5,056 nt of DNA from a virus (Duplodnaviria; Heunggongvirae; Uroviricota; Caudoviricetes). The position numbers and the translations under genes are program-made. The stretch is taken from the IMG/VR virus record IMGVR_UViG_2537562194_000021; one strand, given 5' to 3'. Below the pieces are notes generated by a model. The model saw only the letters and a program-made list of their open reading frames with translations, did no database searches and was not told where the DNA came from. This document shows, piece by piece, positions 3 to 5,056 of the stretch; within the stretch, counting starts at the first letter, position 1; each line of letters opens with the position of its first letter.

Positions 3-257
3 CCCTGGCCTTTGATTGATGGCGTCGGGCAGATTTACGGCATGTATGTCCTGACTGAAACGAATACGACCCGCTCCGAGTTTGATCGCTACGGTAAGGC
101 GAAAAAGATAGAATTTTCACTGACTCTTGAACGCTGTGATGAGGATTTGCGGGAGCGCCTGCAATCCTCATCGTTCAGTGATATGCTGTCCGGCTTCAAA
201 GATAAGGTCACATCATCCCTTAACAGCGCGGCCAGCTCCGTTAAAGGGCTGTTTTGA
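3..257 (+). CDS. C-terminal fragment of an unidentified protein, possibly a phage tail/structural protein; 5-prime end lies outside the window
   Basis: The frame is open from the window edge (codons from position 3) to TGA at 255-257; the track's start at 12 is a TTG and probably not the real start. The translation (..PLIDGVGQIYGMYVLTETNTTRSEFDRYGKAKKIEFSLTLERCDEDL..) looks like real protein and is followed by a strong hairpin terminator. The resemblance to P2 gpU-like tail proteins is from memory only and is not verified. Confidence 0.5.
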   Translation, partial: PWPLIDGVGQIYGMYVLTETNTTRSEFDRYGKAKKIEFSLTLERCDEDLRERLQSSSFSDMLSGFKDKVTSSLNSAASSVKGLF

Positions 258-264
258 TTAACGC

Positions 265-294
265 AAAACCGCTAATGGTCAGATTAGCGGTTTT
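265..294. terminator. Bidirectional intrinsic terminator shared by the convergent left gene and the invertase gene
   Basis: Perfect 12-bp inverted repeat aaaaccgctaat (265-276) / attagcggtttt (283-294) around a 6-nt loop (ggtcag). Because the arms begin with A4 and end with T4, the hairpin is followed by a U-run on either strand. The invertase stop codon (284-286) lies inside the 3-prime arm. Confidence 0.6.
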
Positions 295-883
295 CATTTT
301 CCTGAGTCTGCCTGGTTGTTTCTTCAGCCTGTATATCGCCTACAGGGTGATAACGATAAATTGTCGATATGCCGATGTCGTAAATGATCGCCAGTTGTTT
401 CCTGTCATGACCGTTTTTGATCAGCCTTGCTATTTGCTCATGCTGTTCTTTTGTCCGCTTCGGGCGACGTCCGCCTGTGCGCCCCCGTGCGCGCGCTGCC
501 GCCAGTCCGGCCAGTGTACGTTCAACAATTAATTCACGTTCCATTTCAGCTAGGGCACCCATCACGTGGAAGAAAAAACGCCCCATTGGAGAAGATGTAT
601 CTATGCTGTCGGTCAGACTGCGAAAATTAATCCCTCGCTCCCGTAGTTCTCCGACGAGAGAAATCAGATGTTTCATGCTTCGCCCAAGGCGATCCAGTTT
701 CCAGACAACCAGCGTGTCACCTTTTTGAAGCCGCTTTAAAGCGCGTTTTAATCCCGGTCGGTCTGTCTTTGTCCCGCTTAATTTATCTTCAAATATTTGT
801 TCACATCCTGCACAAACAAGAGCGTTTCGTTGCAGGTCTGTATTCTGGTCATTTGTTGATACCCTTACATAACCAATCAGCAC
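284..883 (-). CDS. Site-specific DNA invertase, serine recombinase of the Gin/Pin/Cin/Hin family (about 199 aa)
   Basis: The translation carries the family's N-terminal catalytic motif LIGYVRVSTNDQNTDLQ (catalytic Ser at residue 9, codon 857-859), the central conserved block WKLDRLGRSMKHLISLVGELRERGINFRSLTDSIDTSSPMGRFFFHVMGALAEMERELI, and a C-terminal helix-turn-helix region (RKQLAIIYDIGISTIYRY). The track begins the ORF at a TTG (899-901), but GTG at 881-883 gives the canonical M-L-I-G-Y-V-R-V-S N-terminus and is preceded by GGGAG (891-895) with a 7-nt spacer. Confidence 0.93.
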   Translation of the reverse strand: MLIGYVRVSTNDQNTDLQRNALVCAGCEQIFEDKLSGTKTDRPGLKRALKRLQKGDTLVVWKLDRLGRSMKHLISLVGELRERGINFRSLTDSIDTSSPMGRFFFHVMGALAEMERELIVERTLAGLAAARARGRTGGRRPKRTKEQHEQIARLIKNGHDRKQLAIIYDIGISTIYRYHPVGDIQAEETTRQTQENENR

Positions 884-937
884 ACTGAATCTCCCGTCCA
901 AAAGCGCAAATCATGCCATGCAGGCCGGAAACGGCCA

Positions 938-963
938 TTATCTAAAACCTCGGTTTACAGGAA
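938..963. other. Left 26-bp recombination (crossover) site for the invertase, gix/pix/cix/hix-like; predicted core dinucleotide TC at 950-951
   Basis: ttatctaaaacc-tc-ggtttacaggaa is two imperfectly palindromic 12-bp half-sites around a 2-bp core, and closely matches the gix-type sequence as I recall it. An inverted copy is at 4241-4266. It lies 55 bp from the invertase start. Confidence 0.85.
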
Positions 964-1019
964 ACGGTAAATCAGGCTTCTGGCGCATTACAGAAAAACC
1001 AGAACGGCGCAGATATTCC
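938..1019. repeat. Left arm of the 82-bp inverted repeat bounding the invertible segment
   Basis: The reverse complement of 4185-4266 matches 938-1019 with only 2 mismatches (positions 943 and 946, both in the outer half-site). Identity is perfect from 947 to 1019 and decays inward after 1019. Confidence 0.9.
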
Positions 1020-1908
1020 GGGAAAAGATACCTTCACCAAAAATATTGGGGCCTGCCGCGCATATAGCGCATGGCTGGATATTGGTGGCGATAGTCAGGT
1101 CTGGACAACCGCGCAATTTATTTCGTGGCTGGAGAGTCAGGGAGCATTTAACCATCCTTACTGGATGTGCAAAGGCTCATGGGCTTATGCAAATAATAAG
1201 GTCATTACAGATACAGGTTGCGGAAATATTTGTCTTGCAGGTGCTGTGGTGGAAGTTATTGGCACTCGCGGCGCAATGACCATACGCGTTACCACGCCGA
1301 GCACGTCCAGCGGTGGAGGAATTACTAACGCTCAATTCACTTATATTAATCATGGTGATGCTTACGCTCCTGGCTGGCGACGAGACTACAACACGAAAAA
1401 TCAACAACCTGCATTTGCTTTAGGGCAAACAGGAAGCACTGTCGGAAATGATAAAGCTGTTGGCTGGAACTGGAATAGCGGGGTCTATAACGCAAATATT
1501 GGTGGCGCATCGACATTAATCCTCCACTTCAATATGAATACGGGGAGCTGCCCTGCTGCACAGTTCCGCGTGAATTACAGAAATGGCGGAATCTTTTATC
1601 GTTCAGCGCGTGATGGTTATGGCTTTGAAGCTGACTGGTCAGAGTTTTACACCACAACCCGCAAACCCTCTGCGGGAGATGTTGGTGCATATACGCAGGC
1701 AGAATGTAACTCAAGGTTTATTACAGGTATTCGCCTTGGCGGTCTGTCATCTGTTCAGACATGGAATGGTCCCGGCTGGTCTGACAGGTCAGGTTATGTC
1801 GTTACGGGTTCAGTTAACGGAAACCGTGATGAATTAATTGATACAACTCAGGCAAGGCCAATTCAGTATTGCATTAATGGGACGTGGTATAACGCGGGGA
1901 GTATTTAA
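949..1908 (+). CDS. Silent alternative tail-fiber C-terminal (receptor-binding) cassette, Sv'-like; has no start codon and is expressed only after inversion fuses it to the constant part
   Basis: Frame 1 is open from the TAA at 943-945 to the TAA at 1906-1908. I translated 949-1164 by hand and found no stop and no ATG/GTG/TTG. The first 24 codons (949-1020, [24 protein letters not shown]) are identical to the linker of the expressed fiber. The C-terminus (..PIQYCINGTWYNAGSI) parallels the expressed fiber end (..[16 protein letters not shown]). The track's ATG at 1165 is an internal Met. Confidence 0.8.
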   Translation, partial: LGLQETVNQASGALQKNQNGADIPGKDTFTKNIGACRAYSAWLDIGGDSQVWTTAQFISWLESQGAFNHPYWMCKGSWAYANNKVITDTGCGNICLAGAVVEVIGTRGAMTIRVTTPSTSSGGGITNAQFTYINHGDAYAPGWRRDYNTKNQQPAFALGQTGSTVGNDKAVGWNWNSGVYNANIGGASTLILHFNMNTGSCPAAQFRVNYRNGGIFYRSARDGYGFEADWSEFYTTTRKPSAGDVGAYTQAECNSRFITGIRLGGLSSVQTWNGPGWSDRSGYVVTGSVNGNRDELIDTTQARPIQYCINGTWYNAGSI

Positions 1909-1910
1909 CG

Positions 1911-2444
1911 ATGATGCACTTAAAAAACATTACTGCTGGCAACCCTAAAACAAAAGAGCAATACCAGCTAACGAAACAATTTAACATCAAATGGCTTTAT
2001 TCAGAGGATGGAAAAAACTGGTATGAGGAACAAAAGAATTTCCAGCCAGACACTTTGAAAATGGTCTATGACCATAACGGCGTTATTATTTGTATTGAAA
2101 AGGATGTTTCAGCAATTAATCCGGAAGGCGCAAGCGTCGTTGAATTACCTGATATTACAGCAAATCGCCGTGCTGACATTTCGGGTAAATGGATGTTCAA
2201 AGATGGCGTAGTGGTAAAACGAACTTATACCGAGGAAGAGCAGAGGCAGCAGGCGGAAAATGAAAAGCAAAGCCTGCTACAGCTCGTCAGGGATAAAACC
2301 CAGCTATGGGACTCACAGCTACGGCTGGGCATCATTTCCGACGAGAATAAACAAAAATTAACAGAGTGGATGCTCTTTGCGCAGAAAGTCGAATCTACAG
2401 ACACTTCCAGCCTGCCAGTAACGTTTCCCGAACAACCTGAATGA
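1911..2444 (+). CDS. Tail-fiber assembly protein (Tfa/U-like chaperone) cognate to the silent cassette, currently in the silent orientation
   Basis: A 177-aa ORF starting 2 nt after the Sv' stop, with GGGGAG at 1896-1901 as a ribosome-binding site. Its first ~120 aa are roughly two-thirds identical by eye to the convergent ORF at 2473-3000 (shared MMHLKNI.., [30 protein letters not shown]), while the C-termini diverge. Confidence 0.85.
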   Translation: MMHLKNITAGNPKTKEQYQLTKQFNIKWLYSEDGKNWYEEQKNFQPDTLKMVYDHNGVIICIEKDVSAINPEGASVVELPDITANRRADISGKWMFKDGVVVKRTYTEEEQRQQAENEKQSLLQLVRDKTQLWDSQLRLGIISDENKQKLTEWMLFAQKVESTDTSSLPVTFPEQPE

Positions 2445-2447
2445 GAC

Positions 2448-2474
2448 AAGGCCCGATAGCGGGCCTTAATTTTT
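2448..2474 (+). terminator. Intrinsic terminator between the convergent assembly genes; strong in the + direction, weak in the - direction
   Basis: Hairpin aaggcccg-atag-cgggcctt (2448-2467) is followed on the + strand by aatttttatt. On the - strand the hairpin is followed by gtctcattcagg, with no U-run. Confidence 0.55.
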
Positions 2475-3000
2475 ATTCAGGCTTTTGTGGCCATTCAGGA
2501 TTTGCCGTATCCACACGGCTGACCAGAACACTGTAGCGTTCCCATGACTCCAGTCGTGCGCGTTCCTCATCCGTCGCCATATTCAGCCTGACAGCGCGCT
2601 CCAGTGGCTGAATAACGCTTTCCGCTTCGGAAAGTAACGCGGCCTTTTGTGATTCGGCCTGTTGTTGCTGCTCGTCTGCCGTATAAATCCGTTTAACTAC
2701 AGCTCCGTCCTTAAACATCCACTTACCGGAATCATCGGCCCGACGATTGGCTGTTATATCGGGGACCTCAACGACGTTAAAACCTTCAGGGTTAAGCGTG
2801 GAGGCATCTTTAGTTATGGCAACAATAATATTATGTTCATCGTAAACAATCTTTATTGTGTCTTCCTGAAAATTCTTTACCTCTTCATACCAGTTTTTTC
2901 CGTCTTCGGACCACAACCAGATAACGTCAAAATTCTTTGTTAATTCGTACTGTTTCAGTGTTTTAGCGTTACCCGCTTTAATGTTCTTTAAGTGCATCAT
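2473..3000 (-). CDS. Tail-fiber assembly protein (Tfa/U-like chaperone), expressed orientation, translationally coupled to the tail-fiber gene
   Basis: A 175-aa ORF whose ATG (2998-3000) lies 1 nt after the tail-fiber stop (3002-3004). It is a paralogue of the 1911-2444 product, with a conserved N-terminal two-thirds and a divergent C-terminus. Confidence 0.88.
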
Positions 3001-3001
3001 A

Positions 3002-5056
3002 TTAAACGCTCGCTACATTATACCAGGTGCCATTTATATACTTTTGAACTGGTCTGTAATAAACGCCAGCTATATTATCGGCAGAATTTGACCCTGTATC
3101 CTGAACATTTATACCAGACAATACATGACCTGAAGGGCACTGGAAGTTCCATGTTTGCCAGTTGTTCACACCATAATATTGCTGTGAACCAAGCCGAACA
3201 TCTTTCACATATCGGGAATCAATGTTACCCCAGTTGCTTGGTTGTATCTGACCGTTTACAGCAAATGTCACCGAGTTATCTGTATTTCGCTGACTATAGA
3301 AATGCCAGCCTGAATCATCACCAAGCTCTGCAACAGTTGGTCTTGACGAATTTCCCCACAAGTTAAATGATGCATTACGGGCAGCGGTATTTGCACTTGA
3401 AAGTGTGAATAACTTACTTTCCCCAGCCTGAATACCCTTTAATGATATTGCTGAACCATTTCTAAAGCGGAATACATGCACACCATTAGCATAAGCATCC
3501 AGCACCCCATCACCATTTTGTTTAAACCCGGTATCGTTATCTCCTAAAACTATTGAATTGCTACCCAGGGCATTAGCCGTTCCAATCCCCAGATTTCCGC
3601 TAAAAATGGCATTAATACCGAATATTGAGTGAGAACAATAAAACCCTCGCCCATTGTTAAAATCAAGAATAGCTTGTGCGTTCGTGCTTTCTGTCGCGGG
3701 ATTAGTTGCTCCCCACTTATATGTTGTTTGACCGACGGTATAATCCTGAGTTGGAACAATAACCGTTAGCCCTTCTTCAGCAGAAACCCGCACAGGAAAA
3801 GCCCTGCCTTCAACGTAAAAAACGCTGCATACATCATCTTCTTTAAGGCTTGTTACAATGGAATGGATTGCGCGCTCATTAGTCTGATACGTCGAAAAAT
3901 AACCTGCCGCATATGAACCACGATCAGTCCAGCCACCAGGCATTACCATTCCATTGAATTCGCAGTTATTCATTTCGTAATTACCACCGGCAGATGTGGT
4001 CGTTATAATCACTCTGGAAGCCAGCTCGCCAGTGCTGCCTGTGGAACGCCGGAAAATAACTGGATACCACTTTCCACCAACTGCATTAGACGGCGCATTA
4101 AATGCGTACTGCTGCATTCCTTTTTTCTTATCCACCTCGCCTTTGCTGTAAACATTAATGTTACTCAGGAAGCGATCCTTATCAGGAATATCTGCGCCGT
4201 TCTGGTTTTTCTGTAATGCGCCAGAAGCCTGATTTACCGTTTCCTGTAAACCGAGGTATTCGATAACGGCGGCAACGGTCGATTTCGCAAGAATATCCCG
4301 CCCTACTTTTGTCAGAGTTGCCAGGCTGGCGACATCATTCCCCGTAAAATACGGAAACCTGTCTGCCGCAGTAGCAAGCCCGGCCAGCGCCGTCAGGGTG
4401 GCATCTTTCGGTTGCTTACCCGCAAGCGCGTTAGTCATGGTGGTCGCAAAATTCGGGTCGTTGCCCAGCGCCGCCGCCAGCTCGTTCAGCGTGTTCAGTG
4501 CGTCAGGTGAAGAGTCTACAAGTGCGGCAATCGCGGCCATAACGAAAGCCGTGCTTGCGATTTGGGTATTATTCGTTCCCTGTTGTGCAGTTGGTGTTGT
4601 TGGCGTTCCGGTCAGTGCCGGGCTGTTTAATGGGGCTTTCTTGTTCGTTTCATCCATTACCGCCTTAACCGCTTTTGGTGTCGCTGCCAGCGTTTCAGAC
4701 GTGCTGTTGGTTGCACTGCTGAGCTGGACTATCCCTTTTCGTGCCGTCGTGGCGTCCTGAGCGGTATATTTTCCGTTAGCCAGGTCATACGCGGCCTTAA
4801 CCGCTTTCGGCGTTGCGGCCAGCGTTTCAGAATCGCTGTTAGTGGCGCTACTGAGTTGAACAAAGCCTTTTGCGGTCAGCGAGGCATCCGGGTGACGTCG
4901 TGACTGTTCATGCTCTTTCAGTTTGTCATCCACGTAATCCACTGTGGCCATCACCATGGTGTTATCCACGGTAAGCGCCACGCTGGCAGTGCTGGATACG
5001 GTTAGAATGGTGCGAAATGTTTGTGCACGTCCGGACCCCTCGGCAACGGTTGGCTT
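3002..5056 (-). CDS. Tail fiber protein (P2 H / Mu S / P1 S-like): constant N-terminal part plus the currently expressed variable C-terminal part; 5-prime end lies beyond the window
   Basis: The - strand frame is open from the window edge (5056) to TAA at 3002-3004; the track's start at 4981 is an internal GTG. The N-terminal region has the tandem [24 protein letters not shown] motifs and the [37 protein letters not shown] block that I recall from P2 H-type fibers. The crossover site lies inside the gene at 4241-4266, at ..[11 protein letters not shown]... Confidence 0.92.
4185..4266. repeat. Right arm of the 82-bp inverted repeat, lying inside the tail-fiber coding sequence
   Basis: It is the reverse complement of 938-1019 with 2 mismatches in the outer half-site. 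It encodes the 24-aa linker [24 protein letters not shown] of the expressed fiber. Confidence 0.9.
4241..4266. other. Right 26-bp recombination (crossover) site, inverted relative to the left site; predicted core at 4253-4254
   Basis: The reverse complement of 4241-4266 is ttatcgaatacc-tc-ggtttacaggaa. The inner half-site is identical to the left site and the outer half-site differs at 2 positions. Confidence 0.85.
4664..4867 (-). repeat. Intragenic tandem repeat encoding two copies of a 24-aa motif in the tail-fiber constant region
   Basis: Unit 1 (4796-4867) encodes [24 protein letters not shown] and unit 2 (4664-4735) encodes [24 protein letters not shown]. The period is 132 bp and nucleotide identity is roughly three-quarters by eye. 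Confidence 0.7.

Follow-up and report, generated by a model that had tools for sequence, protein, structure and literature searches.

A start-less C-terminal tail fiber cassette in a Mu G-segment-type invertible element of a P88-like prophage, and its annotation as a truncated gene

The window, which is the whole 5,056-nt stretch of DNA analyzed here, matches a P88-like (Peduoviridae) prophage in the chromosome of E. coli 95NR1 at 100% identity and several O111 and O145 strains at 99–100%. In 95NR1, the flanking genes are of the P2 tail and baseplate type (tape measure, gpU-like, gpI-like, gpW/gp25, and gpV). Positions 284..883 of the window (− strand) encode a Gin/Pin-type serine DNA invertase of 199 aa that starts from a GTG at 883 (Pfam Resolvase, 1.2e-50; HTH_7, 3.9e-12) and has the same coordinates as a “recombinase family protein” CDS in the PGAP annotation of 95NR1. 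The protein begins VLIGYVRVST, and the catalytic Ser9 is present. Global alignment with Mu Gin gave 158 identical positions in 201 columns, the N-terminal two-thirds being nearly identical and the C-terminal part divergent. The gene itself looks chimeric: the DNA of ~495–883, encoding the catalytic part and including the enhancer region, is Mu gin-like, and that of 284–~495, encoding the C-terminal DNA-binding part, has no Mu DNA match. Nucleotides 19–90 of the gene (794..865, − strand) are identical to Mu gin at 72 of 72 positions and to the annotated P1 cin enhancer at 55 of 72, a likeness which suggests that this region may function as the equivalent of those enhancers.

To the right of the invertase gene lie two variable tail fiber cassettes in opposite orientation, each with its own Caudo_TAP chaperone gene. 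The first, Sv′ (951..1908, + strand), is a presumably silent and start-less C-terminal cassette that occupies an open frame of 946..1908 ending in TAA at 1906–1908. It is followed by U′ (tfa′; 1911..2444, + strand; Pfam Caudo_TAP, 2.7e-36), the predicted tail fiber assembly chaperone and partner of Sv′; its counterpart in the Mu record is annotated as coding for U′ in G(−) phage. A hairpin scan placed a GC-rich, terminator-like hairpin at 2448..2467, between U′ and the convergent gene U (tfa; 2473..3000, − strand; Pfam Caudo_TAP, 9.8e-37; a PGAP CDS), the predicted chaperone partner of the Sv cassette that is currently in the expressed position. The 5′ ends of U′ and U (1911–2071 and 2840–3000) form a 161-nt inverted repeat of 72% identity, and the two genes are paralogues with conserved N termini and divergent C termini.

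The Sv cassette (3002..4253, − strand) is fused to Sc (4254..5056, − strand; Pfam Phage_tail_fib, 1.1e-53; Phage_fiber_2 repeats), the constant N-terminal part of the tail fiber, and forms part of the 798-aa S CDS of 95NR1. Sc lies outside the invertible segment and runs beyond the window to an ATG at window-equivalent position 5398. Sv is a mosaic; over most of its length, the best amino acid identity to any phage record is 57% (Peduovirus P22H4 and phage 9W), and a match to Mu S is confined to its last ~60 nt, the neighboring U, U′, and Sv′ being 93–96% Mu-like. Direct repeats within Sc (4662–4757 and 4794–4889; spacing of 132 nt, 75% identical) encode the Phage_fiber_2 repeat, the copy number of which varies among relatives: NR1430 carries an additional 132-nt unit, and P88 has a shorter S gene.

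Two 26-bp crossover sites in inverted relative orientation bound the segment. The left site (938..963) reads TTATCTAAAACC-TC-GGTTTACAGGAA and differs by 1 nt from Mu gix, TTATCCAAAACC-TC-GGTTTACAGGAA. The right site (4241..4266) reads, as its reverse complement, TTATCGAATACC-TC-GGTTTACAGGAA. Thus, the TC centers and the inner half-sites are identical, and the outer half-sites are unlike (TTATCTAAAACC on the left versus TTATCGAATACC on the right). A repeat search identified the left arm of an inverted repeat at 934..1035 (102 nt, 91% complementary to 4169–4270), and base-by-base comparison showed that the arms match at every position from 947 to 1019. Exchange was placed at 950/951 in the left site, in agreement by alignment with the annotated boundary of the Mu G segment, and at 4253/4254 in the right site, giving an invertible element of 951..4253 (3303 bp). 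Given an exchange point at 950/951, the cassette begins at 951, and the TAA at 943–945, which sits in the outer half-site of the left crossover site, falls outside the invertible DNA. This stop codon is created by a single C>T change relative to Mu gix; Mu has CAA there. An earlier note made on the sequence had set the unit at 949..1908. Its description as a C-terminal module was upheld, and its left end requires correction, the true boundary being the crossover dinucleotide TC at 950–951.

A possible promoter for the invertase gene, spotted by eye, overlaps the left crossover site (937–964, − strand). The candidate −10 element, GATAAT (942→937), falls within the outer half-site; 16 nt upstream is a weak −35 element, TTTCCT (964→959). 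This candidate −35 element belongs to the segment and, because of the repeat, is the same whichever way the segment lies.

Translation of 922..1173 gave RPETAII*NLGLQETV...HPYWMCK, in which the stop is the TAA at 943–945 and the frame is then open up to the ATG at 1165. A listing of the 73 codons of 946..1164 contained none of ATG, GTG, or TTG, and the only near-cognate start codons were ATT and CTG. Because this stretch is devoid of ATG, GTG, and TTG, a mechanical search for ORFs starts at 1165 and reports a 744-nt ORF of 247 aa (1165..1908, + strand), which is an artifactual truncation of Sv′. The earlier proposal that the frame upstream of this ATG is open and start-less back to the stop at 943–945 was therefore confirmed by both translation and codon listing, and an in-frame stop between 949 and 1164 was looked for and found to be absent. 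The length of 72 codons given for the open stretch is one too few because it was counted from 949; the real length is 73 codons. In mononucleotide shuffles of 946..1164, the probability of finding no stop was 0.016 and that of finding no start was 0.025. The remainder of the cassette contains six start codons in 247 codons, from which the probability of finding no start in 73 codons is ~0.17; therefore, the absence of a start is, taken alone, unremarkable and uninformative. The evidential weight for the start-less reading comes instead from homology and architecture.

Signals for expression were assessed from anti-Shine-Dalgarno duplex energies and a promoter scan. The value upstream of ATG 1165 was +2.0 kcal/mol, i.e. 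there is no Shine-Dalgarno sequence, as had been noted earlier from inspection. The values at GTG 1246 and GTG 1249 were −3.1 and −3.8 kcal/mol, respectively. Given that the active S and U genes also have weak values (−3.2 and −3.3 kcal/mol), a missing Shine-Dalgarno sequence is soft evidence. The ribosome-binding site attributed to tfa′/U′ was readily recognized as GGGGAG at 1896–1901, 9 nt before the ATG at 1911, with a duplex energy of −7.6 kcal/mol. A consensus scan for sigma-70-like sites reported none on the + strand upstream of Sv′ or U′, in keeping with the earlier description of Sv′ as promoterless and of tfa′ as lacking an obvious promoter; the scan was a crude consensus match of low power, because the invertase promoter also went undetected, and its result is compatible with weak or non-sigma-70 promoters or with read-through from tail genes lying upstream past a hairpin at 265–294. 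This hairpin, with a 12-bp stem, lies between the ends of a gpU-like tail gene (12..257, + strand) and the invertase gene (284.., − strand). It is probably a bidirectional terminator and, as such, would also stop transcription from reading through towards Sv′. The analogy with Mu and the absence of a promoter-like site make it likely that both Sv′ and tfa′/U′ are silent in the orientation present in the window.

Selection acting on the cassette was examined in gap-free alignments with Mu, P88, NR1430, SfMu, and vB_YpM_39, using the part of the start-less stretch that is unique (1021–1164). Pooled values of pS = 0.10 and pN = 0.008 indicated purifying selection in the Sv′ frame, although the underlying divergence is small, each pair having 3 to 5 synonymous changes across these 144 nt. 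When the same stretch was read in the other two frames, nearly all substitutions were nonsynonymous. The downstream ORF, from 1165, showed the same pattern of constraint as 1021–1164. In DNA, Sv′ is 96.1% identical to Mu S′ over 957 nt with no gaps, and over 320 residues the protein shares ~98% identity with the corresponding Sv′ part of Mu S′; judged by sequence, the presumably silent cassette is in essence Mu S′. Translated, 946..1908 gives 320 aa, which aligned without gaps and in full (320/320) to residues 169–488 of PDB entry 8JU3 (E = 2.6e-220), a chain entitled “Tail fiber protein S, Tail fiber protein S′.” It follows from this match that the Mu homologue has been solved as an Sc-Sv′ chain and that Met-1165 falls within the aligned stretch.

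In silico inversion of 951..4253 in the 95NR1 context generated an in-frame S′ protein of 700 aa that has its first 405 residues in common with the 798-aa S, so that in-frame fusion occurs both ways. The predicted 600-nt junction between Sc and Sv′ was found at 100% identity in 95JB1, a near-isogenic sister isolate of 95NR1 from the same place, and at 99% identity in O103, O145, and O111 strains. In 95JB1, the fused gene is annotated as a 2103-nt CDS for a 700-aa tail protein; an 8-kb stretch of this genome is exactly equal to the in silico inverted sequence, and the encoded protein equals the prediction. An assembly artifact is an unlikely source of the difference between 95NR1 and 95JB1, given that both genomes are complete and that the same orientation contrast recurs among O145 RM strains. 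A survey of complete E. coli genomes found gin|Sv′, the silent junction, in 133 and Sc|Sv′, the expressed junction, in 126, counts which are those expected for a freely flipping switch. The same Sv′ cassette is present in SfMu in the fused, expressed position.

These data are best explained if 951..1908 is Sv′, the alternative C-terminal receptor-binding cassette of S, within a Mu G-segment-type element (951..4253) of a P88-like prophage, a reading to which a probability of roughly 0.95 is assigned. The earlier view of a promoterless, start-less C-terminal module thereby gains support from the in-frame fusion, the natural inversion in 95JB1, the purifying selection, and the alignment with 8JU3. 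The locus has all of those defining features of Din-family (Gin/Cin/Pin/Hin) invertible tail fiber systems that could be assessed from sequence. Drawing on what is known of Mu and P1 (PMC4406740, PMC10434027, PMC3575834), the following sequence of events may be proposed. Transcription and translation would start in Sc, outside the segment and on the − strand, and run into Sv and then U; late transcription would enter from Sc, and only the cassette-chaperone pair adjacent to Sc would be expressed. In the orientation of the window, Sv′ and U′ point away from the direction driven by Sc, and the Sv′-U′ pair would be silent because it lies in the opposite direction and lacks a recognizable promoter and because Sv′ lacks a start codon. 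The Gin-like invertase, presumably together with Fis bound at the enhancer inside the invertase’s own gene, would act on both 26-bp sites and exchange strands at their TC dinucleotides (950/951 and 4253/4254). Inversion would then place Sv′-U′ behind Sc, giving the 700-aa S′ fiber with, as the Mu and P1 systems suggest, a different receptor specificity and hence host range, and would silence Sv-U.

If, instead, the 247-aa or 220-aa ORF were a genuine independent gene, a free receptor-binding fragment would be made from ATG 1165 or GTG 1249. Such an ORF is an annotated CDS in several public records, and the weak Shine-Dalgarno-like match at GTG 1246/1249 is similar to those of S and U. The annotators disagree on the start, however, as is typical of an arbitrary call, no promoter-like site was found upstream, and a fragment devoid of the N-terminal Phage_tail_fib domain would not be expected to attach to the baseplate. 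Given that the 73 upstream codons are open, are under purifying selection in the same frame, and are continuous with the solved Mu Sc-Sv′ chain, and given that 1165 lacks a Shine-Dalgarno sequence, an independent gene is very unlikely and was rejected; the 247-aa ORF that begins at ATG 1165 arises from mechanical ORF calling and is not a gene. A related proposal, that an internal ORF (from ATG 1165 or GTG 1246/1249) is translated at a low level in lysogens to yield a free S′ receptor-binding fragment with a role of its own, is considered extremely improbable. Were it true, the fragment could, for example, mask the receptor against superinfection, and the “truncated” annotation would be accidentally right.

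The cassette might also be viewed as a frozen relic, that is, a pseudogene in decay within a switch that has stopped inverting. The unlike outer half-sites, TTATCTAAAACC and TTATCGAATACC, could be taken in this sense, and there is a precedent in SfMu, for which a 1-bp mutation in the repeat has been proposed to block inversion (PMC4406740). Nevertheless, the two sites have the same central dinucleotide and the same inner half-site, the invertase remains intact with its Ser9, and the coding sequence has a dN/dS well below 1 with no frameshifts. Moreover, exactly this inversion, at 100% identity, is what separates 95NR1 from 95JB1, the same contrast is seen among the O145 RM strains, and genomes carry either orientation at about the same frequency. 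Because of the exact inversion in a sister isolate and the near-equal frequency of both orientations, a frozen or decaying relic was rejected and can be given hardly any credence.

The finding of a start-less cassette is correct, and the system to which it belongs is already known, the Mu-type invertible tail fiber switch having been known since the early 1980s. The locus has the same gene order and strands as the Mu G segment (Sc | Sv-U-U′-Sv′ | gin). The window from ~500 to 3064 is 93–95% identical to the gin-S′-U′-U region of Mu and D108, with a DNA identity of ~93–96% across Sv′-U′-U. By contrast, the host of the element is a P88-like Peduoviridae prophage with a P2-type baseplate and tail, whereas Mu is transposable; at the DNA level, the active Sv shows no relation to that of Mu; the C-terminal part of the invertase diverges from Gin; and the segment measures 3303 bp as compared with ~3.06 kb between the annotated boundaries in Mu. 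The stretch identical in both arms is 73 bp, whereas repeats of 34 bp have been reported for Mu (PMC4406740). The left site here carries the TAA that closes the silent frame, whereas the Mu frame runs past the boundary because the codon matching this TAA is CAA. These differences from Mu are ordinary mosaicism.

The best phage match was P88 (Xuanwuvirus), with 94% identity over 77% of the window. P88 has the same layout (tail protein, invertase, Sv′, tfa′, tfa, and S) and differs in that most of the Sv cassette described here (about 3047..4227) has no P88 DNA match and in that its S gene is 2295 nt long as compared with 2397 nt here. The C segment of P1/P7 (Cin, cix) and the P segment of e14 (Pin) follow the same principle of a constant Sc, alternative Sv/Sv′ cassettes, U/U′ chaperones, and a Din-family serine invertase. 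The Sv′-U′-U region of P1 is 88% identical to 980–3046 of the window. In P1, however, the cin gene flanks the segment on the opposite side and is read towards it, cixL overlaps the 3′ end of cin, the center of cix is TT rather than TC, and the C segment is 4.2 kb in length. In Mu, inversion of G selects S/U or S′/U′, the cassette distal to Sc is unexpressed, and inversion changes the host range (PMC4406740, PMC10434027). Tail fiber inversions have also been described for P2-like E. coli prophages (PMC4272514).

Comparison of public records revealed how such a cassette is reported by annotation pipelines. The PGAP call in 95NR1 covers 1249..1908 (220 aa, “tail fiber protein”), and the 744-nt ORF of 247 aa is annotated in P88, NR1430, and vB_YpM_39. 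In the RefSeq record of Mu, a GeneMark CDS starts from a GTG outside the G segment and crosses the G boundary. The earlier note had anticipated that gene callers would report either a truncated ORF or a pseudogene. The former was borne out by the 220-aa and 247-aa calls, and a pseudogene flag was seen in none of the records. Among the records compared, the correct description, as the carboxy-terminal part of S′, was given only in curated misc_features of P1 and Mu; in the P1 record, Sv′ is explicitly given as a misc_feature and not as a CDS, and both records describe the homologous stretch as expressed only in the (−) orientation. The annotation artifact is symmetric between Sv and Sv′, because in 95JB1 it is the silenced Sv that is annotated as a truncated “hypothetical protein” (1116 nt, 371 aa; 7352–8467 of the 95JB1 locus). 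An asymmetry in size between gene and pseudogene is a recognized signature of gene-altering inversions (PMC9881135).

The main value of the finding is thus a caveat for annotation, and no new biological question is opened by it. Annotation systematically turns the silent cassettes of gene-altering inversions into short “tail fiber” or “hypothetical” proteins whose starts are arbitrary, and such calls fill protein databases with fragments. Recognition of an invertase, of paired crossover sites, and of a start-less frame allows a locus of this kind to be annotated correctly and its two receptor-binding fibers to be predicted.
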